A DNA stretch of 64,000 nt, from assembly GCA_910587535.1 (NCBI GenBank), contig CAJUKM010000001.1, positions 17,496-81,495 of the forward strand, given 5' to 3'. A program made the position numbers and the translations under genes. Shown piece after piece: positions 15,718 through 62,981 of this stretch; position 1 is the stretch's first letter; each line of letters opens with the position of its first letter. The DNA is from an uncultured Bacilli bacterium. GTDB lineage: Bacteria > Bacillota_I > Bacilli_A > RF39 > UBA660. The notes beneath the pieces were generated by a model. That model saw only the letters and a program-made list of their open reading frames with translations. It was not told where the DNA came from and made no database searches.

Positions 15718-16605
15718 TTATTCACCATCCACGTCGATGTCGATTATCTCTAATATGCGCGCTAAGTCTTCATCGCTATCAAAAGGTATGGTAACTTTTT
15801 TCGAAGATATCGTTACTCTCGTTCCGATTTTTTCTCGCATAGCATTTTCGTATACCGAATAGATCCTATTTAATGGAACTACCCTAGTTACTTTATGTCT
15901 CTTGACAATATCGTCACCCTTGCTTATAGCTTCTAATTCTCGCACACTCAAACCGTTATTTATTACTTTGTATGCTAGGGCAGTGATGTATTCTGGGTCT
16001 TCCATTTTACTCAGTATTTTGGCGTGAGCCATACTCAACTGTCCTCTTGCAACGAGTCTTTTTACCTCTTCAGGTAAGTTTACTAATCCTAAGACATTTG
16101 TAATATAGCTTCTGCTTTTACTAACTCTTTTGGCTAGTTCTTCTTGAGTGCAATAGGTGTTTTTAATAATTTTGTCATAGGCTTCTGCTTCTTCAATCGG
16201 GTTTAAATCTTCCCTTTGGATATTTTCTAGAAGCGCTATTTCCATCATCTCTTGATCGGTGTATTCTTTTACTATTGCTGGAATTTCTGTATACCCTGCC
16301 AATTTTGCAGCTTTAGTTCTTCTCTCACCTGCAACTAATTCATATCCTTTGATACTTTTTTTAACTATGATGGGCTGAAATAATCCGTGTTCTTTAATAG
16401 AATCAGCCAATTCTTGAAGTTTTTCTTCGTCGAAATAAATTCGGGGCTGAAACGGATTGCTTCTAATTTCGGATATGGGAATGTTTTGGATATCTTTTTC
16501 CGTAGCAGACTCTATTATCTCTTTCTCGACTGTATCGAAGTTGATATTTTCGCTGTTAAAAAGTTGTTCTAATCCTTTACCTAAAGCTTTTCTTTTAGTT
16601 TCCAT
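15718..16605 (-). CDS. parB: chromosome partitioning protein ParB/Spo0J
   Basis: GERRTKAAKLAG motif and HTH; overlaps parA by 11 nt. Confidence 0.95.
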   Translation of the reverse strand: METKRKALGKGLEQLFNSENINFDTVEKEIIESATEKDIQNIPISEIRSNPFQPRIYFDEEKLQELADSIKEHGLFQPIIVKKSIKGYELVAGERRTKAAKLAGYTEIPAIVKEYTDQEMMEIALLENIQREDLNPIEEAEAYDKIIKNTYCTQEELAKRVSKSRSYITNVLGLVNLPEEVKRLVARGQLSMAHAKILSKMEDPEYITALAYKVINNGLSVRELEAISKGDDIVKRHKVTRVVPLNRIYSVYENAMREKIGTRVTISSKKVTIPFDSDEDLARILEIIDIDVDGE

Positions 16606-17380
16606 CTCTTTCGATTACCTCCTTCGCCAAATTTAAATATGCTTCAGTCGCTCTACAATTTGGATCGTATTCACAGATAGGTACTCCGTGGCTAGGAGCT
16701 TCTACTAGTCTAATAAGTCTAGGTATTATAGTATTAAACGTCTTATCACCAAAGAATTTCCTTACTTGTTCGACGACTTCTAGACCGAGGTTAGTTCTCG
16801 AATCTAGCATGGTAAGTAATACTCCTTCGATAGTCAGCTCTGTGTTTAGTTTTGTTTGAGTTATTATGATGGTATTTAGTACTTGGGCAACTCCCTCTAA
16901 TGCATAGAATTCACATTGAATCGGAATTAGAACTGAATTACTTGCAACGAGTGCATTCATAGTGTTTAATCCGAGAGATGGAGGACAATCTATTATTACG
17001 TAATCGAATGAAGAAGATACTTCACTAAGCGCATTTTTTAGCTGCGAATTTTTTTTAAACTCCGGATCGTTATATTCCATTTGGACGAGTTCGACGTCGA
17101 GACCTGCTAGATTCATCGTTGCAGGCAAGATAAAGAGTTTTGTAAATTTTGTCTTTATTATGGCGTCTTTTATGTCACATTTATTAGTGAGAACTTCATA
17201 GATACTATTTTTTATCGCTCCTTTATCTATACCGATTCCAGTAGATGCATTTCCCTGTGGATCTAAATCTATAAGCAAAGTCTTTTTGCCCATCTTGCCT
17301 AAAGATGCGGCCAAGTTTATGCTCGTCGTTGTCTTCCCAACTCCACCTTTTTGATTAACTAAAGAAATAACTCTTGCCAC
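16595..17380 (-). CDS. parA: chromosome partitioning ATPase ParA/Soj
   Basis: Deviant Walker A (NQKGGVGKTT). GTG start with an AAGGTG RBS. Confidence 0.95.
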   Translation of the reverse strand: MARVISLVNQKGGVGKTTTSINLAASLGKMGKKTLLIDLDPQGNASTGIGIDKGAIKNSIYEVLTNKCDIKDAIIKTKFTKLFILPATMNLAGLDVELVQMEYNDPEFKKNSQLKNALSEVSSSFDYVIIDCPPSLGLNTMNALVASNSVLIPIQCEFYALEGVAQVLNTIIITQTKLNTELTIEGVLLTMLDSRTNLGLEVVEQVRKFFGDKTFNTIIPRLIRLVEAPSHGVPICEYDPNCRATEAYLNLAKEVIERDGN

Positions 17381-40480: not shown

Positions 40481-40700
40481 GTCTTTTCCTTCTTTCTAAA
40501 TAAAAAAATCATGAAACTTAAGGACGGATTATTTTCCGCGGTACCACCTTAATTCATGATTTACATGCTCTTTCTTCCTTTAACGCAGGACTTTACGGTT
40601 GAACTCCAAAACCATGTTCGGCTTATCTCAATACCATCTTTCAGCGTACGATGGCTCTCTATAATATATGATAAGCTTACTCTTTTCTTCTCAGTTCAAT
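40481..40700 (-). ncRNA. T-box riboswitch leader of metG
   Basis: Minus-strand AAUUAAGGUGGUACCGCGG (plus 40536-40554) matches the T-box consensus. A terminator helix (AUCAUGAAUUAAGG / CCUUAAGUUUCAUGAU) followed by U7 overlaps it. A candidate AUG specifier lies in GAAAGAUGG. The promoter TTGATT-17-TATCAT with TGn is at 40707-40735. Confidence 0.8.
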
Positions 40701-40706
40701 ATGAAC

Positions 40707-41287: not shown

Positions 41288-44200
41288 TTATACCTCTTTT
41301 ATTTGTTCTTTTATCAATAATAGTAACTCATAGAAATAGTGAACGTATCCTTTTTGGAGATTAAGCGTATTTAGTGAAATTCTTATCTCACGATTTTTGT
41401 AACTGATTTCGAATTTTGGGTGAATACTATAACTTTGTAGAAATAGTTTTTCGCCATCGATTTGATTAGATATATCGCTATTTAGGACTATAGTGATACG
41501 ATTTTGAAGCTCTATAATATTTGCAATCTTCAATTCTTTTAAGATGCTTTCTACACAGCATTTTTTCATATATTCTTCGAGAGCTTCGTCTATTTTACCA
41601 AATCTATCTTCTAATTCATTTTTTACTTTTTGGAAATCGACTTGATTCTTGATAGAATTTATCAGTTTATGAATCTCAATTTTTATATTTTCATCTTCGA
41701 CGTATTTATCGTCAATATAGCTATTAACATTTAAATGTTTGTTCATATCATCTTCGTTATCAACAGTTTTACCTTCTAAACGCGAAACTTCTTCGTTTAT
41801 CATTTTCGTGTAGAGATCTAGTCCTACGGCATCTATAAACCCTGCTTGTTCGCTCCCTAATAAGTCTCCTGCCCCACGTATTGCTAGATCTCGCATAGCT
41901 ATTTTGTAGCCACTTCCGAGTTCTGTGAATTCTTTTATCGATTCTAATCTTTTTATTGCCGTTTCCGTTAAGATTTTAGCAGGATTATACATCAGATAGG
42001 CATAGGCTATTTTATCGCTTCTTCCCACTCGACCGCGTATTTGATAAAGTTGACTTAGCCCGAATCGATCAGAATCTAGAATTATTATCGTATTGACGTT
42101 TGGAATATCGATTCCCGTTTCGATTATAGTAGTGCATATCAATATGTCGTACTCACAATTTATGAATTTTTCCATTATGGTATTTATCTGTTCGCTGTCC
42201 ATCTGACCGTGGGCTGTCACTATACTGGCTTCTGGTATCAATTTTGAAAGTCTATCTTTAAATGTCTCTAAGGCGTCGATATTATTTATCAGAATAAATA
42301 TTTGTCCTTTTCTTGTCAATTCTTTATATATCGCATCTCTTATTATCAGGTCGTTTTCTTCAATCACATAGGTTTGGATTGGATACCTGTTAATAGGTGG
42401 TGTATCTAAAACCGATAGGCTACGAAGTCCACTCATTGCCATTTTTAGAGTTCTAGGAATAGGAGTGGCTGATAAAGTTAAAACGTTTATATCGCTTTTT
42501 ATTTTTTTTATTTTCTCTTTATGGGAGACTCCAAATCTTTGTTCTTCGTCGATGACTAAAAGCCCCAATTTTTTATATTTAATTTTTTCATTTAAGAGTT
42601 TATGGGTTCCTATTATTATATCAATTTTTCCTTCTTCTAAGTCCTTTAAAATATTTGTAACCTTCTTTTGAGGTACGTGACGATTTAAAAGTTCAATCCT
42701 TATAGGAAAATCTTTAAACCTTTCTATTGCACTTGTGTACTGTTGTTTAGAAAGAATAGTCGTCGGACAAAGATAGGATACTTGAAAATTGTTGATAACA
42801 GTTTTGAACATAGCTCTAAAAGCAACCTCTGTTTTTCCATATCCGACATCCCCACATAATAAGCGATCCATCGGGATGGCACTCTTTAAATCGTAGTCTA
42901 TTTCTTGGATAGTTTTTTCCTGATCCTTGGTTAAATTGAAAGGAAAATCTAGTCCGAATTTGATTTCTTCTTCGTAGTCCTTATAGGCAACTGTCGTTAT
43001 TTTTGATCTATTGGAGTAAAGTTCAAGGAGCTCTTCAGAAATATCTTTAATCCTTTTTCTAGTTTCGCTTTTCTTTTTGGCCCAAGCAGTACTGTTAAGT
43101 TTGTTCAATTTTGGATGAGTTCCTAGATTGGAAGTATATTTATATAGCTTATCTATATTTTCTACTGGAACATATACTTTGTCATTTCCTGCATATTCTA
43201 GTTCTATATAGTCTTTAGTATATTGTCCCTTTTTTAGTGTTTTTAAACCCTTATAAATACCTATACCATGTGTCTCATGAACTATATAGTCTCCATCAGC
43301 AAGGTCAGTGAACGTTTTTACTTTTCTACCTATTTTTATGGTATTTTTGTATCTTATATCTTTTTTAATTTTTTTATCTATGTCGTTTGGAGATATGACT
43401 ACATAGTTTTCGAAGATAAATCCCGAATTTAATGAGCCGAATATGATGTTTATGGCGTCTTTTTCTATATGATTAGTGTCGGTAATGAAAACTTTATCGA
43501 ATAAATCGGATATGATGTTTTTCTGTTTCCGGTTTTGAAGTATGAAAACGATCGTTTTCTTTTCCTTTTGGCAAAAGGATTTTAATTCGTCTAAATTTGA
43601 GTTAAAGTTAACCAGTTCTTTAGATGAATATACTAGCGATTTATCATCGTCATAGGTATTAATCGTCTCTATTAAAAAGGTTTTATTAAGCGTTATGTCC
43701 GAGTAATCGAACATGTATTTATGATCTTGCGAAATACCTTTATGTTCTTTATATTCGTACATCTCTTGTTGTAGATTTTTGTATGCAACATTTATTTGGC
43801 TTTCATCTATTAAAAAAATCGACGGAATATATAAGTAGTCTATTAAAGAACTTTGCAGTTCTCCAGTCGTTTCATTAAATCTCTTTATTTCTACACACTC
43901 TAAATCTCTAATAGTCCTTTGACTATTTTCGTCAAATTCTTTTATACATTCGATGTCTTCATCGAAAAATTCTATTCGAACAGGTTTTTCTCGATGTATA
44001 GGAAATAAATCTATAATGTATCCTCTAACAGCATATTCTCCTGTAGTAGTTACGAGTGAGTCTCTCCTATAACCTAGGCCTTCCAATCTTTCTATAATTA
44101 TTTCCCGGGAAATATTTGAGGGGGAGAGGTTTAACACTAAATCTTGTTCTTCGTCTTTGTGTGGCAAAAATTTTAGATATCCCATTAGGGACGTGACTAT

Positions 44201-50075: not shown

Positions 50076-50495
50076 CTAGCGTTTGTTATCAAAAAAGTGT
50101 GTAATGTCAGAACGATATTTATCGACACGTTCATCTCGTAATTCGAATTGTTCAAAAATTGTACATTTGTATTGTTTTTTGAATTTATATCTAGGAATTA
50201 TATAGAATATTTTTTTAAGCCTAGCCTCTTTTAATACCGCCTTACACATATCGCAAGGTTCTAAAGTTACAACCATACATTTGTTCTCTAAATTCCAATT
50301 TTTCAACTTTTTATTAGCTTTTTCCACAGCTATAATTTCTGCATGATCAGTAGTCTTTTTTGTTCTGTTGCGTTTATTATATCCCGTACTTATTATACCA
50401 TTAGAATCATATATTATTGCACTAACAGGAAACTCGTTTTCCACAAGAGATCTTTTAGCTAACTTAAAAAGAGTTTTCAACATTTTTTCATCCAT
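50076..50495 (-). CDS. tadA: tRNA-specific adenosine deaminase TadA
   Basis: HAEIIA...PCDMC zinc motifs. The ATG at 50495 has GGAGG 7 nt upstream. The ORF call extends to 50600. Confidence 0.88.
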   Translation of the reverse strand: MDEKMLKTLFKLAKRSLVENEFPVSAIIYDSNGIISTGYNKRNRTKKTTDHAEIIAVEKANKKLKNWNLENKCMVVTLEPCDMCKAVLKEARLKKIFYIIPRYKFKKQYKCTIFEQFELRDERVDKYRSDITHFFDNKR

Positions 50496-50505
50496 ATATT
50501 CCTCC

Positions 50506-50584
50506 AAAAAAAAGCACACACGAATATTGATCTTATGGCTGCTATCTTCCGATTCTGACCAGATTCGATAATTGTTCGTTGTGC
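50506..50584 (-). ncRNA. ffs: signal recognition particle RNA (small 4.5S-type), relocated upstream of tadA
   Basis: The minus-strand RNA GUGCACAACGAAC...CUGGUCAGAAUCGGAAGAUAGCAGCCAUAAG...UUCGUGUGUGC-U8 forms a long hairpin. Its apical region matches the SRP domain IV consensus (GGUCAG..CGGAAG..AGCAGCC with a GGAA tetraloop). A TTGCAA-17-TAATAT (TGn) promoter sits at 50591-50619 and a U8 terminator abuts the tadA RBS. Confidence 0.6.
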
Positions 50585-50590
50585 ACATAT

Positions 50591-50619
50591 ATATTATCAT
50601 TTTAGTTGGTGTTTTGCAA
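50591..50619 (-). promoter_or_regulatory. sigma-A promoter (TTGCAA-17-TGaTAATAT) driving ffs
   Basis: -35 at 50614-50619 and -10 revcomp at 50591-50596 with an extended TG. Confidence 0.55.
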
Positions 50620-50645
50620 CTATATAATTATTTCCCGGGAAATAA

Positions 50646-50661
50646 TGTTTCACGTGGAACA
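50646..50661. promoter_or_regulatory. parS site 1
   Basis: TGTTTCACGTGGAACA, 15 of 16 matches to the consensus TGTTNCACGTGAAACA. Confidence 0.8.
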
Positions 50662-50758
50662 TCATTTGCATGAAGAATAGTATTTCCTCATATTTATTAA
50701 TAATATTATGAGAGTTATACTCTTTTTTGTTTTAAATTACTAAAATTATAGTCATCAA

Positions 50759-50774
50759 TGTTTCACGTGGAACA
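50759..50774. promoter_or_regulatory. parS site 2
   Basis: TGTTTCACGTGGAACA. Confidence 0.8.
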
Positions 50775-50953
50775 TTAAATGTGAAAGCGATTAAACTTTT
50801 TAAAGAAATCGCACCTATAAATAATCTATGGTTATCAATTATAACTTAAACTTTAACAATTTTATATACAAGAACATTTTGATTTAATTATCATTATTAT
50901 TACGTGATTACAATTATTTAATTAATACTTTTAAAAATACGCACATCGTACAA

Positions 50954-50969
50954 TGTTTCACGTGAAACA
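50954..50969. promoter_or_regulatory. parS site 3 (perfect palindrome)
   Basis: TGTTTCACGTGAAACA. Confidence 0.85.
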
Positions 50970-51210
50970 TTTATGGTGGAAAAACTATCAATTTTATCAA
51001 ATTAAAGAAGAAGAGCATTTTTTCTGTTTTAAAAAACCACATTATATCAGACAATTAACAATTTATTTATCTTATTCTTTAAATTTCTAGTTATTTATTA
51101 ACAGAAATTATTTTTTTTGTACAATTTATTACGTATTTGTAAGTCTATATATGTTTTTTACCAAGAAGTCCGGTAAGCAATCATTAATTACGTAAAACTG
51201 TTGTAGCGAA

Positions 51211-51226
51211 TGTTCCACGTGAAACA
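51211..51226. promoter_or_regulatory. parS site 4 (exact Bacillus consensus)
   Basis: TGTTCCACGTGAAACA. Confidence 0.85.
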
Positions 51227-51314
51227 TTGTCTGCGAAAAAAATAAACTTTATATTCATAAATTGGTATTACTTTTAAATAGGGTAGGGAATACTTTTTTA
51301 TTATTTTAATTATA

Positions 51315-51330
51315 TGTTTCACGTGGAACA
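51315..51330. promoter_or_regulatory. parS site 5
   Basis: TGTTTCACGTGGAACA. Confidence 0.8.
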
Positions 51331-51340
51331 TTATTTCCCG

Positions 51341-51378
51341 GGAAATAAAAAAAGGCTATTCGGTTGAATTGCCTTTTT
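51341..51378 (-). terminator. intrinsic terminator of gyrA (hairpin overlapping stop codon)
   Basis: Minus-strand GGCAAUUC-AACC-GAAUAGCC followed by UUUUUUUAUUU. Confidence 0.55.
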
Positions 51379-53920
51379 CTTCCACAACTTCTTTATCTGA
51401 GTTTTCCACAGTTTTTTCTTCTATAGTAGAATCATTGTCTTCGATTTTATCTTTTTCCACAATACTTATAGATGAAACTATTTGATTCTCTTTTAAATTG
51501 ATCAATCTTACTCCTTGAGCATTTCTACTCAGCTGTGAGATGTTAGCTGTTTCTAGTCTTATGACCATACCGGAATCCGTGATAATAACTATGTCTTTTT
51601 CATCATCTACTAATTTAAATGATACGATACTTCCGTTTTTGTCAGTTACATTTAGAGCTTTTACTCCCTTGCTTCCACGCTTAGTTTCTCTAAATTCACG
51701 AACAAATGTTCTTTTTCCATATCCTTTTTGAGTTACTATTAATAGGTTTGCTTCAAGATCACATACTTCTGCACATATACACGTTCCATCAGGCATATTT
51801 ATTCCTCTGACTCCTGAGGCTGTTCTTCCCATTATGCGTACTTCGTCTTCATCGAATAATACTGTACGTCCGTTCGTAGATCCTAATAGAACCTTATTAT
51901 TTCCTGTAGTTTTTTTGACTTCGATCAATTCGTCATCATCTTTAAGAGTAATACTTATTTTTCCTGTCTGACGAATATTGGCGAAGTCTTCTATTGCTGT
52001 TCTTTTTACTATTCCTTTTTTAGTAGCGAATAATAAATATTTGTATTCTTCGTCATCATTAGATATTTTTATAATCGAACTAACTGTTTCTTCCTTTTCA
52101 ATGTGTAACAAATTAATAATAGGTAGTCCCTTAGATTGTCTTGCAAATTCTGGAATTTCATATCCTTTAAGTCTATATACCTTGCCTTTATTAGTAAAGA
52201 ACAATATGTAATCATGGGTTGATACGTTTATCATCAGTTTTACGTTATCTTCTTCGTTTGTACTCATTCCTTTGATTCCAACGCCACCACGATTCTGAAT
52301 TTTGTAGGTATTAGCTGCTAATCTTTTAATATAGCCTTTTTCTGTGACGGTAATGATGCTATTTTCTTCTGGTATGAGCGATTCATCTTCTATAAAGTCT
52401 ATAGCTGTCATATCTATCTTTGTTCTTCTCTCATCACCGTATTTTTCTTTAATTTCTGTCATCTCTTTTTTAATTATGTCTAAAACTTTTTGTTCGCTTG
52501 CTAGAATTGATTTTAATTCTTCAATAAGTTTTAACAGATTTGCCAGTTCTTCTTCGATTTTGCTTCTTTCTAATCCAGTCAATCTGCGCAATTTTAATTC
52601 TAGTATACTATCAGCCTGAATTTCAGAGAAGCCAAATCTACTTATCAATCTCTCTTTGGCTATGACATCACTTTCTGCTTCTTTTATAATCTTTATGACT
52701 TCATCGATATTATCTAAGGCTATTTTGTATCCCTCTAAGATATGGACTCTCTTTTCTGCTTTTTCTAATTCAAAGCGAGTTCTTCTTACGATAACTTCCT
52801 TCTGATGATCGATGTATTTGCTGATAATTTCTTTTAAAGTCAGGGTTTTAGGTACACCCATGTCCAACATTATAAACAATATTCCATAAGTAGTTTGAAA
52901 ATCGGTATGTTTGTATAAGTTATTTAGTACTACTTGAGGATTAGCATCTCTTTTTAGAGTTATAGTAATTTTTAGACCATTTTTTAAGTCAGTGTGATAG
53001 TCTGAGATTCCTTCTATCACCTTATTATGAACGAGATCTGCGACTTTTTCTTTTAGTGATAACGTATTAGTACCATAAGGAACTTCATCTATTATTATAT
53101 AATTCCTGCCATGTTTTTCTTCAATGATAGCATTACTTCTTATAGTAATAGATCCACGTCCTGTTTCATAGGCCTTTTTAATACCACTGTTTCCTAATAT
53201 TATTCCACCAGTAGGGAAATCCGGACCTTTTATATACTGCATTAAACCTAAAGTGTCTATTTCTGGATTATCTATGTACGCAATACAACCATCTATTACT
53301 TCTTTTAAATTATGTGGCGGAATATTTGTAGCCATTCCTACGGCAATTCCTGTCGTTCCATTGACTAAAACGTTAGGAAATCTTGATGGTAATACATCTG
53401 GTTCTTTTTCTAATCCATCGAAGTTTGGCGAAAAATTAACAGTATTTTTATTGATATCACGTATCATTTCTAGTGATATCTTAGCCATTCTAGATTCTGT
53501 ATAACGATATGCTGCTGCACTGTCTCCATTTATATTTCCGAAGTTTCCGTGTCCATCTACTAACATGTATCTAAGACTGAAATCTTGGGCCATTCTTACC
53601 ATGGCATCGTAAATAGATGAGTCCCCATGTGGATGGTATTTACCGATAACATCTCCGATAATACGTGCACATTTTTTATGTGGTTTGTCTGGTGTATATC
53701 CCGATTCATACATAGAGTATAGAATTCTTCTATGTACTGGTTTTAGTCCATCTCGAAGATCTGGCAAGGCTCTAGCAGTGATAACACTCAAAGAATATTC
53801 TATGAACGAGTCTTCTATTTCTTTAACTATATCATTATGCTGTACTTTATCTTTTTCTGTCATTTCGACTGTAGTTTCTTCAACTTCTTCAATTTTTTCT
53901 ATTTTTTTATCTTCATCCAT
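51356..53920 (-). CDS. gyrA: DNA gyrase subunit A
   Basis: 854 aa with the active-site region (AAAYRYTE) and a C-terminal beta-pinwheel. Confidence 0.97.
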
Positions 53921-53931
53921 GATTTTACCTC

Positions 53932-55866
53932 CTATCCTATAGTATCTATATTAGTGGCATATGGGGCTTTCTCCTCGATAAATTTTCTTCGAGGTTCAAC
54001 TTCTTCACCCATTATCTTACTAAATGCGGCATCAGCGCTCATCGCGTCATTTACGGTTATTTTTTTCAATATTCTTGTCTCGATGTTCATAGTAGTTTCG
54101 TCTAATTCATGAGGGTCCATTTCTCCGAGACCTTTCATTCTGGTTATTTCCGTTTTTACATTTTCCGGAAGAGATTTTAAATATTCATCTTTTTCTGGCT
54201 CTGTTAAGACATATTTAATTGTTTTCCCGTGTTTTATACAAAAAAGTGGTGGTTGAGCTGCGTAGACATGTCCTGCTTCAACAATAGGCCTAAAGAATCT
54301 ATAGAAAAGTGTTAAAAGCAGTACTCTTATGTGTGCTCCATCGACATCGGCATCGGTCATGATGATTATTTTATCGTATCTCAACTTATTGAGGTCGAAT
54401 TCTTCACCTATACCAGTTCCGAATGCTGTTATGATAGTTCTTATTTCATCATTCGATAGTGCTTTATCCAAACGAGCTTTTTCTACGTTCAATATTTTTC
54501 CCTTTAGTGGAAGTATTGCTTGAGTCATACTATCTCTACATTTTAGAGCTGATCCTCCTGCTGAATCTCCCTCGACTAGGAATATTTCACAGATGCTTGG
54601 GTCTTTTTCTTTACAATCCTGCAATTTTCCACCGAAAGGAACAACGTCTAGATCTCCCTTTCTATGGGCGATTTCTCTCGCCTTTTTAGCGGCAATTCTC
54701 GCTCTAGCAGCCATTAAACATTTATCAATTATCTCTTTAGCATCGCTAGGATTTTCCATTAAGAAACGTTCAAATCCTGAACTGAAGACGTCGTCAGCTA
54801 TTTTTCTTACCTCTGCATTACCCAATTTTGTTTTAGTTTGTCCTTCAAACTGAGGATCTGGATGCTTACAAGAGATTATCATTGTGAGACCTTCTCTTAC
54901 ATCATCACCACTAAGCGGATCGTCACTTTCCTTTAAAAGCTTGTTATTTTTAGCATAATTGTTGATTATACGTGTTAGTGCTCTTTTTACGCCGTCTTCA
55001 TGTGTTCCACCCTCGTAAGTCTTAATGTTATTCGTATAAGAGTAAATTGAAGGACTATAAGAACTGTTATATTGCATGGCTACTTCCAAAGATATATCAT
55101 TTTCTACTCCTTCAAAATAGACGATATCTTCGTGGATAGCCGTTTTATTTTTATTTAATAACCTTACGTATTCGATTATTCCTCCATTATATAGAAATTC
55201 CTCTTTCTTTATTTCAGATCCTCTAGTATCAGAAAGAATAATTCTCAGACCTTTATTTAAGAATGCCAATTCCTGTAATCTTTCATGTAAGATATCATAC
55301 TTATATTCGGTAGTTTCAGTAAAGATAGTCGCGTCTGGTTTAAATTTTACAGTTGTTCCGGTTCGATTTTCATCACATTTGTCGATTACTTTCATCGGTT
55401 CGACAGGTTTTCCACCGTTTTCAAACCTTTGATAATGGACTTCTCCGTGTTGATATACGTATACTTCTAGCCATTCTGATAAAGCATTTACAACACTGGC
55501 ACCGACACCGTGTAATCCTCCAGATACCTTGTATCCTCCGCCTCCAAACTTTCCGCCGGCGTGTAGCACTGTGAATATCGTTTCGATTGTCGACAATCCA
55601 GTCTTTGCATTCATTCCGGTTGGCATTCCACGACCGTCATCCTTGACAGTTATGCTATTATCTTTTTCGACAATGATTTCTATATCGTCACAATAACCTG
55701 CTAAAGCTTCGTCTACGGAGTTGTCCACTATTTCCCATACTAAATGGTGTAATCCTCTTTCGCTAGTCGTTCCTATATACATTCCTGGGCGTTTTCTGAC
55801 GGCTTCAAGACCTTCTAAAACCTGAATATCACTATCAGAATATTCTTGATTATTTTTCTCATTCAT
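53932..55866 (-). CDS. gyrB: DNA gyrase subunit B
   Basis: GHKL ATPase, Toprim and EGDSAGG motifs. Confidence 0.97.
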
Positions 55867-56956
55867 ACTCTCTTTTCACCACTTTCTCATTTTTAACACT
55901 AAAAACTGTGCAATTATTCAGTATTTTGGTGTTTATGTTTTTTAAATCGGTCGTCGTTATAAAAATTTGTAAGTTTTTATTCAATTTCTTTAAGATATTA
56001 TTTATTTTTTTCCCATCTAATTCGCTGAATAAGTCATCTAAGATCAAAATTGGATATATTCCTCTATCTTTGATAAAAAGTTCAATTTCAGCGAGTTTAA
56101 AGCACACTATGGCGTTCTTTTGTTCTCCTTCAGATCCATAATCTTTTAAATTATTTCCTTTTAGAGAAAATATAAAATCGTCATGATGAATTCCGATGTT
56201 AGTTTTTCCTATAACAATATCTTTATCTAAATAAGACTTATATTTTGCCATAAGTTCTTCTTTAGTTTTATTTTTATAGGAACTCACATACAAGACTTTG
56301 AGACCTTTTTTTCTCGTTATATCGACATTAATCTTGTCATAATACTTATTGATGTCGTCGATGAATTTCTGTCTATAGTTAGCTATTTTCATACCGATTT
56401 CGATAAGTTTTTCAGTCAAAATCCAGAGATAATCTGGACTAGCTAGTTTATTAACATACATCAATTTTAAAAAGGCATTTCTCTGTTTTAAAGTTTTATT
56501 ATATTCGTTTAATAAATGAAGATATCCATTTTCCATTTGTGAGATCTCGATGTTTATCATATTTCTTCGACTCATCGGCGAATCTTTTATGACGTTCGTA
56601 TGTTCTGGTGTGAAAAGTACGACATTTATCTTAGAAATATAATTGCTAAGTTTGGCAATTTTGTTGTTGTCTATTTTGACAATTTTTCCATTATCGGAAA
56701 GATCTACTTTGTATTTGTGCTTTATCCTATCTTTAACTGAACCTTCGATACTCATCTCTTTTTTACCATTTTTAATGAGTATTTTATCGAGACTTCCTCT
56801 AAAAGATTTGGTTATTGCTAGGACATATATAGCTTCTACTATGTTCGTCTTTCCCGACCCATTTTCTCCAATTATGATATTCTGCTTTTTAGAAAATTCT
56901 AAAGTTAAGTTTTCATAATTTCTAAAATTGTATAGTTTCAAGTTGCTGATTTTCAT
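55859..56956 (-). CDS. recF: DNA replication/repair protein RecF
   Basis: Walker A (GENGSGKTN) and an SMC-like signature. Confidence 0.93.
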
Positions 56957-56984
56957 AAATTGCCACCTTAAAGCTTGAATAATA

Positions 56985-57030
56985 AATTTACTAGGTATGG
57001 ACGATCCTCTATACCTAGTAATAATTATAC
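56985..57030 (-). terminator. hairpin downstream of comK-like gene (9-bp stem ACTAGGTAT/ATACCTAGT)
   Basis: Perfect 9-bp stem with a 12-nt loop; the U tract is modest. Confidence 0.4.
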
Positions 57031-57078
57031 CATAAAAATGGCCACTTTTAAAAGATTTTTTAAGATTTTAGTCGAAAA

Positions 57079-57528
57079 TTAACGTCTGTTTTTTCTTTTA
57101 TAAATGATCGATTCTAATCTAGTTGCTCTCAACACTTGATTGTTGATAATCTTATTCGATGCGTGTACTTGCAATGTAAGATTATTGTGGAATCTTATGA
57201 TACTTTCGTCATCATATGGAGTATAGCTATCCAAATTGTTAAGCGATACCCATCCACAATCATTGAGACGTGGACTAGATGTCGGGAAAAATATCAAATT
57301 TTCCGAGTCTTCAATTAAAATTGGTGCTTTATGAGTTATTCCAATCAATTCCATCGTTCCTTTTTTTCGACCTTCGTATGAACTTCCGTAATATTCACAA
57401 TTTTCTGCAATTATTTTTCGAGCATTTTTTTCTACAACAAACGCATTTTCATTTTCATAAACTTTAGACCTTTTTTTATTTATAGGCATTATCGCTAAAG
57501 TTTTTGAACTAATCGTATAGTTTTCCAT
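57079..57528 (-). CDS. comK: ComK-family competence transcription factor-like protein
   Basis: CEYYGSSYEGRKKGTMELIGITHKAPILIEDSENLIFFPTSSPRLNDCGWVSLNNL aligns with B. subtilis ComK (CRFFGSSYAGRKAGTYEVTKISHKPPIMVDPSNQIFLFPTLSSTRPQCGWISHVHV). RBS is GGGAGGTG. Confidence 0.8.
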   Translation of the reverse strand: MENYTISSKTLAIMPINKKRSKVYENENAFVVEKNARKIIAENCEYYGSSYEGRKKGTMELIGITHKAPILIEDSENLIFFPTSSPRLNDCGWVSLNNLDSYTPYDDESIIRFHNNLTLQVHASNKIINNQVLRATRLESIIYKRKNRR

Positions 57529-57640
57529 CGTTTCACCTCCCTGCAGGTCCCCTTATACTATAAATCGCTGTCGATATTTGTCGAACTGTGTAAGAATTGC
57601 TAAAAAAATTAACTTTTTTGAAATATTTTGCGATTTAAAT

Positions 57641-57662
57641 AAAAAAAAACGGCATAACCGTC
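57641..57662 (-). terminator. weak intrinsic terminator after dnaN
   Basis: Minus-strand GACGGUUAUGCCGUU followed by U9. Confidence 0.4.
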
Positions 57663-57665
57663 ATT

Positions 57666-58784
57666 TTAATAAGTTTTAATAGGAAGGATAAGTTGTACTA
57701 AAGTTTCGTCTTTAGCAGATTTGATAACTATAGGTTTAATCTCACTGTTAAGTAAGACGACTAGTTCAGTATCGTCGATAGTTTTTAATGCATCCATCAT
57801 GTATTTAGCACTGAAAGATATTCCGACATCATTTCCCTCGTTTTTCTCGATTTCGATCGTCTCTTCTGTTCTACCAATTTCGGAAGCAAAAGAGGAGATC
57901 ACCAATCTATTGGTGTTGGTCTCCATTTTAACGATGTTCTTTTCTTTATTTTGAGTAAGGAGTGAAGCTCTATCGATAGCACTATAGAAATCGTTATAGT
58001 TAGTATTAAATATGATACTAAAATCATCGGGAATCAAATTATTCGTATTAGGGTAAGTACCACTTAACAGATTAGATTGAAGAGTAATATTTTTATATAT
58101 AAATAGAATCTTGTTGGAAAATATATGCATTTCCACAGGTTCGTCATCGTTTATGATTTTATCTAATTCACTTATATTGTTTCCTGGAATAGTGATGTTT
58201 ACTTCCTCTTTAATAAATTCTGACAGTTGGATAGTCTTTTTTGCTAGTCTATAAGAATCAGTTGCTGTTACTTCCATGATATTACCCTGCAATTTGAGAT
58301 TTATTCCCGTCAGAAGAGGTCTAGATTCTTGAGTACTTATAGCAAAGACTGTCTGTTTTATAATAGTTTTAAATAGATTTCCTTTAATAACGATAGGATC
58401 TTTCTGATATTCTAATTTTATCTGTGGATAATCTTCTACTTTTAAACAGTTCAAACTGAATTGACTCGTTTTAGCTTTGATCATCACCTTTAAACCGTCT
58501 ATCACTTCTATATCGATCGTATCGTCCGGTAACTTTCTTATTATTTCATTTATATATTTACTCTGAATTACGATACTTCCTTCTTCAGAGACACTTTTTA
58601 TCTTGTCTCTCTTTATATATGATTTTATCGTTAAATCTGTATCGCTCGCAGTTAAATATAATCCTTCAGAGTTCAATTCGAATTTGATACCGTTTAATAC
58701 AGGTATGACATTTTTAATAGATATGGCTTTTGTTACGTTGTTTAAGCTTTCTAGTAGTGTGCTTTTTTCAATAGTGAATTTCAT
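57666..58784 (-). CDS. dnaN: DNA polymerase III beta sliding clamp
   Basis: 372 aa of the DnaN family, downstream of dnaA. Confidence 0.95.
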   Translation of the reverse strand: MKFTIEKSTLLESLNNVTKAISIKNVIPVLNGIKFELNSEGLYLTASDTDLTIKSYIKRDKIKSVSEEGSIVIQSKYINEIIRKLPDDTIDIEVIDGLKVMIKAKTSQFSLNCLKVEDYPQIKLEYQKDPIVIKGNLFKTIIKQTVFAISTQESRPLLTGINLKLQGNIMEVTATDSYRLAKKTIQLSEFIKEEVNITIPGNNISELDKIINDDEPVEMHIFSNKILFIYKNITLQSNLLSGTYPNTNNLIPDDFSIIFNTNYNDFYSAIDRASLLTQNKEKNIVKMETNTNRLVISSFASEIGRTEETIEIEKNEGNDVGISFSAKYMMDALKTIDDTELVVLLNSEIKPIVIKSAKDETLVQLILPIKTY

Positions 58785-58829
58785 TTTTGTTTCCTTCTTT
58801 CTTATTTTATATTAGTTATTATTGTTATG

Positions 58830-58895
58830 TCCTGTGGATTCTGTGGAAAAGAGATATTTTTCTTTTAAAATATGGATTTCGAGGGTGTTGATAAG
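58830..58895. promoter_or_regulatory. DnaA-box cluster between dnaA and dnaN (oriC downstream half, incC-like)
   Basis: TGTGGATTC 58834-58842, TGTGGAAAA 58843-58851 and TGTTGATAA 58886-58894. These are reverse complements of TTATCCACA-type boxes. Confidence 0.7.
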
Positions 58896-58924
58896 CTGTT
58901 GAAAAGTGTAGTTGTTTCAACAAG

Positions 58925-60346
58925 TTAACCGATATTATTTTTAATCTCTTTAATTATGTCTTTTAATTGATTGTTATTTTTCAAATCTTCTTTTATTTTA
59001 TCACAGGCGTGAATGATTGTCGAATGATCGCGATTACCAAATTCTAATCCTATCTTAGGAAATGACTCGTCCGTATAAGTACGACAAAGATATATTGCCA
59101 CTTGTCTAGGATAGTTTATGTTTGCGGTACGTCGTTTACTTTTTAAATCTTCGACTGTTATTTTATAGTAGTCTGCGACCGCTTTTTGGATTTTTGCAAT
59201 ATTGCTATCCATGTAGACAGAATTTTTTAGATAATCTCTAAGAGCTTCGTTTGCGAATTCCAAATCGATTTTATGAGGTCCCATAATGGCAGCATAGGCG
59301 TATAGCCTCGTTATTGCTCCTTCGATGTGTCTCACGTCGTTTTCACTGTTACTCGCTATATATTCGATGACGTCGTCCATAACTAGTCCTGCAACCGCAT
59401 GTCCTGACATCTTGTTTTTAGCTATCCTTTTCTTCAATTCGATATCTGGAGGATAGATGTTTACGGTAAGTCCCCAACTAAATCTCGTTCTAAGTCGCTC
59501 TTCTAAAAGTTTTAAATCATCCGGACTGCGATCAGAACTTATTATTATCTGTTTGTTCATATCATAGAGACTGTTAAAAGTATGGAAAAATTCTTGCTGA
59601 GTTTTCTCCGCTTTTTCTAGAAATTGGATATCGTCTATCATCAAGACGTCTATGCCTCTATACTTTTCTTTAAATGCTTGAATGTAGGTTCCATCTTTGT
59701 TCATATTTATCGTCGTAAAGTCCGAAATGAACTTATCGCTAGTGACATATAAAACCTTTTTTGCACTGGTATTTTTTATATAATTTCCTATGGCGTGCAT
59801 CAAGTGTGTTTTACCTAAGCCACTTTTTCCATGTATGAAAAAAGGGTTATATAGTTTTCCCGGTTGTTCAGCAACTGACATCGCGGCAGTATGCGCTAGT
59901 CTATTAGAATCTCCGACAATAAAATTATCGAACGTATATTTTTCTATCAGATTGCTCTCTATAGGGTGTTGATAAGTAGTAGTGTTTTCAACAGGTATCG
60001 TTAAAGGATCAGAATTTTCATTCTGAAGAGGTGTAATTGTTCCTACTGGTTTTTCTTTGATCGTTGAAATTTCTTCTTCTAAAACGAATTCGATATTACA
60101 GTGTTTTCCCAAGATGGCTTCCATCAGTTCTTCAATCGTTTCTAAATATCTCTTTATTAATGCTTCCTTTATATAGAGAGAGCTAGTCACTATAGTTACA
60201 ATTTTTATCGATTTGTTATCCTCGACTGCATCGTCGATTTTATATATTTTACAGTATTTAAACCAGGAGTTTATTGAGACGGTAGAAATCCTATTTTTTA
60301 ATAATCCTATAAAATTTTGCCATATTAAATTATTTTCTTCGCTCAT
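58925..60346 (-). CDS. dnaA: chromosomal replication initiator DnaA
   Basis: Walker A (GKSGLGKTHL) and a C-terminal DnaA-box-binding HTH. Confidence 0.97.
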   Translation of the reverse strand: MSEENNLIWQNFIGLLKNRISTVSINSWFKYCKIYKIDDAVEDNKSIKIVTIVTSSLYIKEALIKRYLETIEELMEAILGKHCNIEFVLEEEISTIKEKPVGTITPLQNENSDPLTIPVENTTTYQHPIESNLIEKYTFDNFIVGDSNRLAHTAAMSVAEQPGKLYNPFFIHGKSGLGKTHLMHAIGNYIKNTSAKKVLYVTSDKFISDFTTINMNKDGTYIQAFKEKYRGIDVLMIDDIQFLEKAEKTQQEFFHTFNSLYDMNKQIIISSDRSPDDLKLLEERLRTRFSWGLTVNIYPPDIELKKRIAKNKMSGHAVAGLVMDDVIEYIASNSENDVRHIEGAITRLYAYAAIMGPHKIDLEFANEALRDYLKNSVYMDSNIAKIQKAVADYYKITVEDLKSKRRTANINYPRQVAIYLCRTYTDESFPKIGLEFGNRDHSTIIHACDKIKEDLKNNNQLKDIIKEIKNNIG

Positions 60347-60761
60347 AAACCATCACCCCGGTTTCTTGTTAATTTCATTTTAGCGTAAATCCAAAAAAAG
60401 ATAAAGATGTTTTTGAAAAAATAATTTATGAACATAGTTTATCTACATAAATTGTTGAAAAATGTCGAATTTAAAACCTTTATTTAAAACAAAAACTTCA
60501 TTTATCCACAGTTTCCACAATTTTGGGATATCGACAATGTAGATAAGTTATGCACATATTGTGGAAATAGTGTTGATAAGTGTGTGGAAAAAAATTATTC
60601 ATATTCTATTTGAAAAGATTTGAAATCATCATGCGACTAAAATAAACTTAGCCGTAGGTATTTAATTTGATTAATATATAAAAGAAAGGACTATTAAACT
60701 TGACTTTTTGGCGATCCCTATAATATAATACTCTTGAATTTTAGATTTGGAGGTGCAAACT
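60347..60761. other. oriC upstream region with multiple DnaA boxes and AT-rich unwinding region
   Basis: TTATCTACA 60439-60447. TTATCCACA 60502-60510, perfect. GTTTCCACA 60511-60519. TGTGGAAAT 60560-60568. TGTTGATAA 60571-60579. TGTGGAAAA 60583-60591. Confidence 0.8.
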
Positions 60762-60884
60762 ATGAAAAGAACTTATCAACCAAACAATCGTAAAAAGAGT
60801 AAAAAGCACGGTTTTTTTGCTAGAAAAGAAAGCAATATTTTAAAATCTAGAAGAAAAAAAGGTCGTAAAGTATTATGTAAGTAA
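60762..60884 (+). CDS. rpmH: 50S ribosomal protein L34
   Basis: [40 protein letters not shown] with RBS GGAGG. It is below the ORF-track size cutoff. Confidence 0.9.
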
Positions 60885-60922
60885 ACCACCAAGAGAGTGG
60901 TTTTTATTCTAGAAGGTGAAAT

Positions 60923-61252
60923 ATGAAGAGATGTGAAACGATCAAGGATAAAAAAAGATTTAATAGTATAATCAGATCTGGAACATTCTGTAAAAATAAA
61001 TATTATGTATTATATTATTCTGAGAGTCTCGATAAGAAATTTTCTAAATTTGGAGTAGCGATTAAAAAGAGTTACGGCAAAGCAGTTGAGAGAAACAAAA
61101 TCAAAAGGCAGACGAGGAATATAATCGATAAATATAAAAAAGAGTTCAAAAAAGGTAAGGATTATATTATAATGATAAGGAACGAATGCTTGAATGCCGA
61201 CTTTAAGAAATTAGATGAATCATTAGAGGCATTAGTGAAAGGAATAAAATAG
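60923..61252 (+). CDS. rnpA: ribonuclease P protein component
   Basis: 109 aa basic protein with RnpA motif KIKRQTRN, downstream of rpmH. Confidence 0.9.
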   Translation: MKRCETIKDKKRFNSIIRSGTFCKNKYYVLYYSESLDKKFSKFGVAIKKSYGKAVERNKIKRQTRNIIDKYKKEFKKGKDYIIMIRNECLNADFKKLDESLEALVKGIK

Positions 61253-62245
61253 ATGAAGAAAAACAAAAAGTTAGCAGTTTTGTTGTTAACCTTAATAGTT
61301 TTGAGTACAGGATGTACGAAATATTTATCCGATGGAGATAAGAAGAAGATAATAAATGAAGTCACTGGTCAATCGTTGACATCGAACATATTATGCTTAC
61401 CAGAAGATGAAGATCTTTTAAAGATTTATGAAGAAAACAAAGAGAACATGGATGTCGATTATGAAGGTTTAAATCCTTGTCCGGAATATAAACCGAGCGA
61501 TGTCAAATATAACAACCTTTGGGAAACGTTATTCGTTAAGCCTTTAGCATATATAATCATAAAGTTGGGAGTTTTCGTTAGCAATTATGGATTAGCAGTT
61601 ATCATATTAGGACTATTGATCAGATTGATATTATTTCCTTTTACTAAAAAGACGATGATGCAATCTGAAAACATGAAGAAAGCTCAACCCGAATTACAAG
61701 CTATTCAAAGAAAATATGGAAACGCTAAAGATCAAGCTACGGCGATGCAGATGAGTCAAGAATTGATGATGGTTTACAAAAAATATAACATCAGTCCTGC
61801 TAGTGGATGTTTGGTTCCACTCATCCAACTTCCTATATTGTTAGCATTTTTAGAAGCGATAAATAGAGTTCCTGCGATTTTCGAAGGTAATTTCTTAACC
61901 TTACAACTCGGAACTTCTCCTTTTGTAGGTATCAAAAATGGTAATTATCTCTATATTCTATTGATAATCTTGATAGTAGCTACTACATATTTTTCTTATA
62001 AAAATACTATGAATACTTCTACCGGTAATAAAGAACAAGATAAACAGATGGAGATGACTATGAAATTCATGATAGTGTTCATTTCAGTAGCATCTTTAAG
62101 TTTACCGACCGCTTTAGCTCTTTATTGGATAGTTTCTAACGGATTCATGATATTGCAGACGTTAATTTTAAAAAGAGATAAAGACGAGAATAAAAATAAG
62201 AATACCGGACGAGTAGTAGGCAATTCTAAAAAGAGAGGAAAATAG
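61253..62245 (+). CDS. yidC: membrane protein insertase YidC/SpoIIIJ (lipoprotein type)
   Basis: Lipobox (LSTGC) and the conserved YidC TM core. Confidence 0.92.
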   Translation: MKKNKKLAVLLLTLIVLSTGCTKYLSDGDKKKIINEVTGQSLTSNILCLPEDEDLLKIYEENKENMDVDYEGLNPCPEYKPSDVKYNNLWETLFVKPLAYIIIKLGVFVSNYGLAVIILGLLIRLILFPFTKKTMMQSENMKKAQPELQAIQRKYGNAKDQATAMQMSQELMMVYKKYNISPASGCLVPLIQLPILLAFLEAINRVPAIFEGNFLTLQLGTSPFVGIKNGNYLYILLIILIVATTYFSYKNTMNTSTGNKEQDKQMEMTMKFMIVFISVASLSLPTALALYWIVSNGFMILQTLILKRDKDENKNKNTGRVVGNSKKRGK

Positions 62246-62250
62246 TAGTC

Positions 62251-62862: not shown

Positions 62863-62886
62863 GAATTTTAAAATAAACTTTTAGAT

Positions 62887-62930
62887 GATAAAGACAATAG
62901 GTTCTTCCTAGCTTTATCATTTTTTTTATT
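62887..62930 (+). terminator. intrinsic terminator after jag
   Basis: GATAAAG-(loop with TAGG/CCTA)-CTTTATC followed by ATTTTTTTTATTTT. Confidence 0.6.
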
Positions 62931-62981
62931 TTTAATAAATGTAACTAATAATCTGTGGTATACTGTTTTTAGGTGATAAAT

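Follow-up and report, generated by a model that had tools for sequence, protein, structure and literature searches.

ParB and Noc constitute the textbook pair in which a duplicated DNA-binding protein has acquired both a different specificity and a different role, and their respective sites have been treated as separate systems in model organisms. Among plasmids, the sopC centromere of F packs many ParB-family binding sites into a short non-coding stretch, and on RK2 the ParB-family CTP clamp KorB is retained by another DNA-binding protein, KorA, at an operator close by. An N-terminal amphipathic helix has been described as "extremely" conserved in all examined Noc homologues and is needed for function in B. 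subtilis. The Noc-binding site (NBS) has the published consensus TATTTCCCGGGAAATA (PMC7383237) and an origin-proximal bias in both B. subtilis and S. aureus, and specificity for it has been traced to Q173 and R201 combined with lysine at either 179 or 184 (Jalal 2020). Chromosomal parS can be numerous, as in Listeria innocua, which like Streptomyces coelicolor carries 20-23 origin-proximal parS according to a review (PMC7333895); given this example, the statement in a sequence-only reading of the present DNA that the parS of Firmicutes are normally dispersed singletons is too strong.

The locus considered here lies in a 64,000-nucleotide stretch of DNA from an uncultured Bacilli bacterium (hereafter the window). 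A site scan of these 64 kb returned five parS of 16 bp each, forming a block at 50646-51330, and they are listed here with three copies of a second palindrome and with the neighbouring features (palindromic and parS sites are given without strand).

44099..44114: dispersed third predicted NBS, exact 16-mer TATTTCCCGGGAAATA inside mfd
50076..50495, minus strand: tadA, beyond ffs
50498..50595, minus strand: ffs, small SRP RNA, downstream neighbour of the array (RF00169 match of 49.8 bits, gathering score 40)
50591..50619, minus strand: putative ffs promoter, TTGCAA-17 nt-TAATAT with 8/12 consensus matches, downstream limit of the pocket
50629..50644: predicted NBS-left, 16 bp, identical to the consensus TATTTCCCGGGAAATA; parS1 follows after 1 bp, and the -35 box of the putative ffs promoter is ~9 bp away
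50646..50661: parS1, TGTTTCACGTGGAACA (equal to TGTTCCACGTGAAACA on the minus strand)
50759..50774: parS2, TGTTTCACGTGGAACA
50954..50969: parS3, TGTTTCACGTGAAACA, a perfect palindrome
51211..51226: parS4, TGTTCCACGTGAAACA, the asymmetric variant in opposite orientation
51315..51330: parS5, TGTTTCACGTGGAACA
51332..51347: predicted NBS-right, exact TATTTCCCGGGAAATA, 1 bp from parS5 and directly past the T-run of the gyrA terminator hairpin
51349..51378, minus strand: probable gyrA terminator, a hairpin with 13-bp arms and a 4-nt loop, then a T-run, upstream limit of the pocket
51356..53920, minus strand: gyrA, upstream neighbour of the array

The gap between gyrA and ffs/tadA, where the sequence-only reading had placed the array, measures 720 bp, and both neighbours were confirmed. 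The terminator hairpin comes from repeat analysis and direct reading and is not listed by the consensus scan; the putative ffs promoter, also read directly, falls below the threshold of that scan and is of low confidence, and it is kept with ffs as one block in relatives. The pocket between these two elements is apparently transcription-free. Several ORFs of 22-47 codons occur within the array region. The parS matches, counted per strand, number 10 against 0.08 expected, a count that none of 100 shuffles attained, and all five sites match the consensus TGTTNCACGTGAAACA exactly on one strand; the three that had been credited with a single G substitution are TGTTCCACGTGAAACA on the opposite strand and hence also exact. 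Spacers of 97, 179, 241 and 88 bp had been measured correctly. The window array is no tandem repeat, the spacers being mutually unrelated and head-to-tail unit copies, the hallmark of a sopC-type tandem-repeat centromere, being absent from it. No further parS-like site with two or fewer mismatches was found in the rest of the 64-kb window, parB (15718-16605) included, which bears out the earlier remark that parB has no parS of its own. All parS seen in ~85 kb around oriC fall within a single intergenic pocket of 700 bp. A perfect DnaA box at 60502, a GC-skew switch near 60 kb and the dnaA-rpmH gap mark the origin region, in agreement with the ~9 kb to oriC first estimated.

The palindrome TTTCCCGGGAAA had already been noticed at both ends of the block; it is indeed present there, and a third copy, at 44101 in mfd, had been overlooked. 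The conserved unit is longer, a 16-mer (TATTTCCCGGGAAATA) with three exact copies in the window, and it is identical at 16/16 positions to the NBS consensus published as TATTTCCC-GGGAAATA (PMC7383237). The end palindromes are, on this identity, predicted Noc-binding sites. An earlier guess that they might be sites for a second protein was therefore sound, as the palindrome has the NBS sequence and the species encodes a Noc-type paralogue. NBS also occur outside the array, with one copy in mfd and dispersed copies in related loci.

Two partition genes are encoded in the window:

15718..16605, minus strand: parB, 295 aa, with a GERRTKAA CTP-binding motif, the residues R-V-N-A and an N-terminal LGKGL peptide of ParA-interaction type
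16595..17380, minus strand: parA, 261 aa, the partner ATPase of ParB

At the specificity positions, the R-V-N-A of the window ParB corresponds to the parS type (R at 173, a small residue at 201), its closest solved relative is B. subtilis Spo0J, and it is presumed to read the five parS. KorB appears only as a distant PDB match of this protein. With canonical, clustered, origin-proximal parS, a ParA and a parS-type ParB, the ParB nucleation hub proposed by the sequence-only reading is the natural interpretation, SMC loading being added by analogy. No second ParB-family gene was detected inside the window by tblastn or by a GERR-motif scan. The Noc-like gene is known from same-species contigs, which are 99.3-99.9% identical to window positions 52252-63063 and from which the window diverges just past jag; extension beyond jag in these contigs leads through mnmE-mnmG-rsmG to a ParB-family gene of 369 aa directly downstream of rsmG (gidB) and near oriC, the position of a Noc gene. 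In another species, the Noc-like gene and a mixed array are found on one contig.

Several features of the 369-aa protein are of Noc type. Its closest solved relatives are the Noc structures 7NG0, 7NFU and 7OL9, it has a Noc-like C-terminal domain, and a small neighbour-joining tree places it as sister to canonical Noc while grouping the window ParB with Spo0J. The four specificity positions read Q-K-N-R (NBS type), a combination present in 112/120 homologues, although position 184 is N and not K. GERRYKAS and ENVQRK indicate, as sequence evidence, a ParB-type CTP-binding N-terminal domain, and the GERRxR and ENxQR CTP motifs are kept in both ParB and the Noc-like protein. The NCBIfam Noc model TIGR04285 gives 294.1 bits against a cut-off of 315, with model positions 1-201 of 255 aligned, and the protein has a long acidic linker in which the short motifs IFGF, NPF and FDMFGD are conserved. 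An in-frame stop lies five codons upstream of the start; the protein aligns from Noc residue 25-27 and from residue 2 of the engineered NocNΔ26 construct, and its N-terminus is equally short in 120/120 close homologues and 150/150 representatives. Since the start coincides with that of the NocNΔ26 truncation, the protein lacks the N-terminal amphipathic membrane-targeting helix. Literature searches found no description of a Noc without the membrane helix, and nothing relevant on mixed NBS/parS arrays, nucleoid occlusion in RF39 or "Noc-like" ParB proteins.

A genome scan placed an NBS within 30 bp of a parS in at least 119 stretches from different species, and among the matches listed all NBS+parS stretches lie in the order gyrA-array-tadA-dnaX; mixed arrays are accordingly noted across this clade, with no claim that they are restricted to it. 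In ~200 related loci that extend beyond the gyrA end and bear such sites (the matches listed by the NBS-parS scan and a sample chosen regardless of NBS), the gyrA-tadA gap is occupied in every one, and the clade sharing this location spans GyrA identities down to ~60%. Within the sample unselected for NBS, parS are present in the gap in 52/62 related loci and NBS as well in 29; about 40% of related arrays hold parS only, and NBS are therefore not obligatory in an array. The two site types are sharply separated, with 726 pure parS, 399 pure NBS and no hybrids in 1.78 Mb examined, and single-position variants number only ~30 for a total of over 1,100 sites. Arrays contain 0.83 NBS per kb versus 0.05 per kb outside (~17-fold enrichment), and the full 16/16 consensus is kept in more than 100 species; a significant link between NBS in the array and NBS elsewhere in the same locus was not obtained (odds ratio 2.4, p = 0.31).

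Conservation is confined to the sites. In comparisons between species, alignment succeeds for the sites and for the ffs block but fails for the spacers, including those of relatives at 83-89% GyrA identity, and within the species of the window 2/112 site positions differ versus 37/626 spacer positions. Close relatives retain mixed arrays, four of them with NBS at both ends (L206, L209, L210 and L129/L130); other species show strict parS-NBS-parS-NBS alternation or tandem amplification of a parS+NBS unit, as in L064 with 8.8 head-to-tail copies of a 75-bp unit, the amplified unit holding one site of each type. Layouts differ greatly among species whose GyrA are 83-89% identical. NBS at both array ends recur in close relatives and are no general rule across the clade. 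Judged from these comparisons, the mixed parS/NBS array is in all likelihood an old, lineage-wide feature with a layout quick to change, of which the bracket in the window would be one variant.

Against this background, the suggested mobile origin, with the block as a MITE or an acquired centromere cassette whose ends are terminal inverted repeats, is extremely improbable. The block ends do carry an inverted repeat (35-nt arms, 94% complementary), and block GC content is slightly below that of the flanks; low GC is, however, normal for intergenic DNA, and the arms, and with them the supposed terminal repeats, are fully accounted for by two palindromic sites with equal 1-bp spacing. The asymmetric parS is moreover oriented alike in the two arms, which is not the outcome expected of an inverted duplication. 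The block is present in a single copy within the window and in none of the viral contigs, a target-site duplication flanking it was not seen by reading, and the comparison of relatives' gyrA-tadA regions that had been recommended places arrays at the same locus throughout the clade, so that no insertion is indicated; synteny, the lack of other copies and arms made only of binding sites led to rejection of a mobile element. Also very improbable is a palindrome serving as operator of an unrelated factor that controls ffs or gyrA, or a region acting as a structured RNA or encoding small peptides. The left NBS, set ~9 bp ahead of the -35 box of the putative ffs promoter, and the short ORFs of the region would suit such roles, but copies of the same 16-mer are found within mfd and, in relatives, at many positions inside genes; its agreement with the NBS consensus is complete, and the species has a Q-K-N-R paralogue. 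Structured RNAs and small ORFs located in the spacers were rejected in addition because the Rfam match is ffs alone and because spacers and small ORFs are unconserved, the spacers being unalignable to relatives.

The part played by NBS within the array admits further readings. As an insulator, a Noc-like roadblock bound at the NBS of both ends would confine ParB clamps to the 700-bp pocket and prevent their sliding onto gyrA and the ffs promoter, for which the 1-bp gap between NBS and the outermost parS at either end, the same bracket in the four relatives named above and the known blocking of ParB clamps by DNA-bound proteins (PMC7053999) can be cited. Among 27 mixed arrays of the unselected sample, the gyrA-side site is an NBS in 19 versus 8.6 expected and NBS stand at both ends in 7 versus 2.0 expected, although these loci are phylogenetically non-independent; a larger set of 76 mixed arrays shows no gyrA-side excess (27 versus 26.3 expected) and a depletion on the tadA side (11 versus 26.2 expected). 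A general rule that NBS bracket the array is unsupported across data sets, as the 27- and 76-array sets disagree. The alternating or tandem layouts of many species are unlike a boundary, and Noc, being a CTP clamp in its own right, moves off its binding site (PMC8429893) and is hence a poor static barrier, all of which renders the insulator rather unlikely. It is less probable still that the array NBS are roleless by-products of parS arrays that duplicate and mutate fast, new NBS being born and tolerated. NBS differ from parS at just two positions per half-site, layouts change greatly between closely related species, tandem amplification of units does occur and many arrays do without NBS, all as a by-product would predict; on the other side stand the complete lack of hybrid palindromes and the rarity of single-position variants, the undiminished consensus in more than 100 species, the enrichment in arrays and an amplified unit that contains both site types.

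The block is most probably the main chromosomal centromere (NBS, five parS, NBS) of an AT-rich gut member of the Bacilli, situated ~9 kb from oriC; such a centromere is ordinary in kind, and the mixed parS/NBS architecture is new. By extension of the established ParB and Noc mechanisms, ParB dimers would use the five parS as nucleation points, from which they would slide outward as closed CTP clamps, building a partition complex that would be moved by ParA and, by analogy with other bacteria, would load SMC. The two NBS would serve Noc-like dimers in the same manner, placing further clamps on this stretch of a few hundred base pairs, so that the origin-proximal centromere would bear a mixed ParB/Noc-like nucleoprotein domain. 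At a centre-to-centre distance of 17 bp, a protein bound to an NBS would abut the outermost parS and could, speculatively, impede ParB clamps on their way out or act as a competitor in loading. Counting against this account are the parS-only arrays, in which NBS are dispensed with; the location of the Noc-like gene in same-species contigs and not in the window; the lack of a membrane helix that B. subtilis Noc requires for function; and the sub-threshold TIGR04285 score together with N at position 184.

The Noc paralogue of the clade may, as a tentative proposal, be a second centromere-associated CTP clamp, specific for NBS, and not a membrane-tethering nucleoid-occlusion factor, with linker motifs that could recruit partners. 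If so, NBS would be kept interleaved with parS, and two paralogous clamps would share the reading of one composite centromere; the paralogue would represent either an ancestral state of Noc, with specificity switched and the membrane anchor not yet gained, or a secondary re-purposing. The two site types stand side by side in one centromere, free of hybrids, in more than 100 species, and the Noc partner is without the feature that defines its known mechanism. These arrays consequently offer a natural system in which to ask if two paralogous CTP clamps work together, compete or obstruct each other on shared DNA, perhaps a glimpse of how Noc evolved from ParB, and a handle on why parS cluster and what drives the clustering, a question that a review in the field poses as open. 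They also furnish a simple sequence marker by which the origin-proximal centromere can be recognised in poorly known AT-rich gut bacteria.

Compared with the ParABS system of B. subtilis (Spo0J/parS), the locus shares an identical 16-bp consensus, an origin-proximal position, a cognate ParA and a ParB with CTP-binding motifs, as well as several sites close together (PMC7333895); it differs in that the window parS occupy one 700-bp intergenic pocket and do not lie within genes, that the window parB has no parS, and that binding sites of a paralogous protein are mixed in among the parS of the array. The Noc-NBS system of B. subtilis and S. aureus is matched by the exact NBS consensus, by an rsmG-adjacent paralogue with Noc-type residues and a Noc-like C-terminal domain, by an origin-proximal position of NBS and by a dispersed NBS in at least one gene (mfd), whereas NBS are here concentrated in a centromere array beside parS and the protein lacks the N-terminal amphipathic helix and has the long acidic linker with conserved short motifs. 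F sopC resembles the locus in its many sites within a short non-coding stretch, and L064 has a true head-to-tail repeat; the present array, however, is chromosomal, syntenic and ancient, the window version has no tandem repeat, and there are two site types that would be read by two paralogues. Lastly, KorB-KorA likewise sets the loading site of a clamp beside the site of a second DNA-binding protein able to arrest or modulate sliding, but the second protein is here a ParB-family paralogue, presumably clamp-forming itself, and the outcome there is gene silencing, whereas here it would be segregation.

Five 16-bp binding sites for ParB (parS) lie within 50623-51348, starting at 50646, 50759, 50954, 51211 and 51315, and all five are exact one-strand matches to TGTTNCACGTGAAACA; such matches averaged 0.08 in shuffled sequence, and none of the shuffles attained the real count. 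These counts bear out the cluster claimed in the sequence-only reading, which had also rightly described parB as free of an internal parS (with as many as two mismatches allowed, nothing else in the 64-kb window, parB included, resembles a parS), whereas the G substitution that it ascribed to three of the sites is one asymmetric variant lying on the opposite strand. Only the sites are repeated (extended consensus AATGTTNCACGTGNAACATT); the spacers of the window array are unrelated to one another, and Tandem Repeats Finder returned no tandem array there.

The palindrome flanking the array, best defined as the 16-mer TATTTCCCGGGAAATA, is identical to the Noc-binding site (NBS), whose published consensus reads, letter for letter, TATTTCCC-GGGAAATA (Jalal et al., 2020; PMC7383237), and this identity marks it as the predicted site of Noc, a ParB paralogue; within each half-site, NBS and parS differ at positions 1 and 6 only. 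The earlier suggestion that this GC-rich palindrome serves a second protein is upheld at the level of sequence. Exact copies in the window are as follows:

50629-50644: NBS-left, exact TATTTCCCGGGAAATA, 1 bp from the outermost parS
51332-51347: NBS-right, exact TATTTCCCGGGAAATA, 1 bp from the outermost parS
44099-44114: third NBS, exact 16-mer, within the mfd coding sequence

Given the copy inside mfd, NBS are not array-confined in the window. The inverted repeats reported at the array ends are present (35 nt, 94% complementary) but are not the termini of an element, being wholly accounted for by two palindromic sites at equal spacing. The asymmetric parS runs in the same direction in both arms, an arrangement not expected from inverted duplication. 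L001, a contig in the public Logan data with the same sequence as the window, ends inside the array, at window position 51039, as would fit a break of short-read assembly at repeated 19-35-bp sites; if such breaks occur, parS/NBS arrays may be under-represented in metagenome-assembled genomes (MAGs).

The array sits in the minus-strand gene order dnaA, dnaN, ComK-family gene, recF, gyrB, gyrA, array, ffs, tadA, dnaX, ybaB, recR. With the GC-skew switch near 60 kb and a perfect DnaA box at 60502, between dnaA and rpmH, the distance of about 9 kb between array and oriC, as first estimated, is confirmed. The gyrA side is closed by the following feature:

51349-51378, minus strand: gyrA-ending hairpin, 13-bp stem and T-run, leading directly into NBS-right

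At the other end, about 9 bp separate a putative ffs promoter (TTGCAA-17-TAATAT, a weak consensus read directly and below the promoter-scan threshold) from NBS-left upstream of it, and the array thus fills the space enclosed by a probable terminator on one side and a probable promoter on the other. The ComK-family gene (57079-57528, minus), between dnaN and recF, keeps its position in relatives L206-L211. Elsewhere, a T-box leader (40517-40701, minus) upstream of a 510-aa ORF (38948-40480) and an L10 leader (651-792, minus) upstream of rplJ are ordinary. In relatives, genes of the SpoIIR and BofA families are located close to the origin (L205:18070-18585; L208:11555-11740), a hint that sporulation genes persist in the clade even though its genomes are small and AT-rich.

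A scan of one genome per GTDB species for NBS and parS no more than 30 bp apart found at least 119 such composite stretches; all those listed are placed between gyrA and tadA-dnaX, GyrA of their genomes mostly shares 57-77% identity with that of the window, and the genome titles read uncultured gut 'Bacilli', 'Tenericutes', 'Erysipelotrichaceae' or 'Clostridium sp. CAG:710/417/1000'; the clade with mixed arrays is one that we take to be GTDB order RF39. Many scanned arrays alternate strictly between parS and NBS, and one (L064:7095-7754) is truly repeated in tandem (75-bp unit, 8.8 copies, 92% matches), every unit holding a single parS and a single NBS. No composite was found in viral contigs. 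A sample not selected on NBS comprised 80 metagenomic loci reached through GyrA alone, of which 62 extend 600 bp or more past gyrA; parS occurred there in 52 of the 62 (up to 12 sites), with both site types in 29 loci, parS only in 23, NBS only in 4 and neither in 6. NBS density in this sample was 0.83 per kb in arrays versus 0.05 per kb outside. Among 16-mers sharing the backbone TNTTNCNCGNGNAANA in 1.78 Mb of loci, 726 were pure parS and 399 pure NBS, with about 30 single-position variants and no parS/NBS hybrid. Bacilli-type gyrA-array-tadA loci also occur in MAGs titled Muribaculaceae, Bacteroides helcogenes or Ca. Scybalousia, the last placed by NCBI in Bacteroidales (L005, L006, L012, L024, L030, L034, L039, L049, L050, L055, L080); these labels look wrong, or the bins contaminated.

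Layouts of arrays in closer relatives, reached through GyrA homologues (N, NBS; P, parS)
L206, same species: N (1 mismatch) P P P P P (1 mismatch) N
L208, GyrA identity 89%: four P-34 bp-N units and two extra P
L209, GyrA identity 86%: N N (1 mismatch) P P P P N
L210, GyrA identity 85%: N P (1 mismatch) P N P P N (1 mismatch) P P N
L211, GyrA identity 83%: P P N P P P P

Across species, alignment is confined to the sites and the ffs block and does not extend to the spacers; within the species, differences fall at 2 of 112 site positions and 37 of 626 spacer positions. A minority hypothesis holds that NBS at the array ends delimit the array by insulation. The NBS bracket does recur in the window's near relatives, and the gyrA-side site is an NBS in 19 of 27 mixed arrays of the unselected sample against 8.6 expected (loci not independent); however, 76 mixed arrays from the genome scan, likewise not independent, display no gyrA-side excess, and NBS are depleted at their tadA side.

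The genes for ParA and for the two proteins expected to read the two site classes are listed below, the third having been reached via look-up of the window Jag protein in public assemblies:

16595-17380: ParA gene
15718-16605: ParB gene, 295 aa
L121:14944-16053 (same species, outside the window): Noc-like gene, 369 aa

The 64-kb window holds no second ParB-family gene. Four contigs recovered via Jag are 99.3-99.9% identical to window 52252-63063, and beyond jag they carry mnmE, mnmG, rsmG and then the 369-aa ParB_N/HTH_ParB gene, the position after rsmG being the classical place of noc. The gene is thus documented at the level of the species rather than of the individual strain, since the window's own strain departs from these contigs at 63063: just after jag (62981-64000), the window and L001 have a peptidase-M14-like ORF in place of mnmE-mnmG-rsmG-noc-like, so that strains differ here, next to oriC, by an insertion or rearrangement. 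In another genome, a Noc-like gene (P0140) and a mixed array (L005) share one contig. The longest contig listed for ParB, Noc-like and GyrA homologues is in each case 1,027,008 bp, presumably a single contig, on which look-up confirmed the GyrA homologue P0304 only.

Four specificity positions are R173, T179, A184 and G201 in Caulobacter ParB versus Q, K, K and R in Noc, where Q173 and R201 read NBS given a lysine at 179 or 184 (Jalal et al.). Window ParB has R-V-N-A, the parS type, and the Noc-like protein Q-K-N-R; the closest solved relative of the former is B. subtilis Spo0J (207 bits; Noc 163 bits), and the best of the latter are Noc structures (198 bits; Spo0J 174 bits). A small neighbour-joining tree groups window ParB with Spo0J and makes the Noc-like protein sister to the Noc pair from Geobacillus and Bacillus. 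The GERRxR and ENxQR motifs are retained in window ParB and the Noc-like protein alike. Because its residues, synteny and fold are those of Noc, while the N-terminal helix is missing and the NCBIfam cut-off is not reached, the protein is called Noc-like.

The Noc-like gene has an in-frame stop five codons upstream of the start and a good ribosome-binding site before its ATG. Full-length Noc chains align with the Noc-like protein from their residue 25-27 onward, and the engineered NocNΔ26ΔCTD construct from its residue 2; among the first 17 residues of the Noc-like protein, all acidic or polar, none is basic. The N-terminal amphipathic helix was extremely conserved in all Noc homologues examined by Adams et al. 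(2015), whose NocNΔ10 lost membrane binding and function, and Jalal et al. (2021) describe it as a CTP-gated membrane switch; the Noc-like protein lacks this anchor. Its 120 closest homologues (49-100% identity) all have FQPR at residue 18-21, and 112 of them Q-K-N-R. From 1.84 billion proteins searched exhaustively with HMMER, the 150 best representatives were taken (median length 464 aa), all with Q at 173 and R at 201 and 145 with K or R at 179; FQPR was recognisable in 147, with its start no later than residue 33 in any of them and no later than residue 25 in 145. Instead of the N-terminal extension the family carries a long acidic linker, in which the short motifs IFGF..TDLE, NPF and ETFDMFGD are conserved, followed by a Noc-like C-terminal domain; across this large Noc-type (Q-K-x-R) group without the membrane-targeting helix (P0121-P0240, P0361-P0507), the linker varies and total length spans 242-805 aa.

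The site identities, their clustering, the two discrete conserved classes and the two paralogues with matching specificity residues are established from sequence. By the established mechanism, ParB would nucleate on the five parS, close into CTP clamps and spread, building the partition complex used by ParA; by analogy, this complex would load SMC. The Noc-like protein would nucleate at NBS and load onto this stretch of DNA as well. Noc of S. aureus restrains replication initiation and covers 8-10 kb of DNA around the sites where it binds; from a starting point 9 kb away from oriC, a Noc-like domain could therefore, speculatively, extend to the origin. The NBS-parS centre-to-centre spacing in the window, 17 bp, is the tightest seen (typical peaks, 24-27 and 35-36 bp), and binding at the outer pairs may be mutually exclusive or cooperative; strain L206 has one degenerate partner in each tight pair.

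In the literature searched, no description was found of NBS and parS systematically co-located in one syntenic centromere, of tandem units with one site of each type, or of a large Noc-type family naturally without a membrane-targeting helix. Origin-proximal parS clusters are well known, with 1 to >20 sites, Listeria included, and the parS array of the window, taken alone, is of an already-known type.
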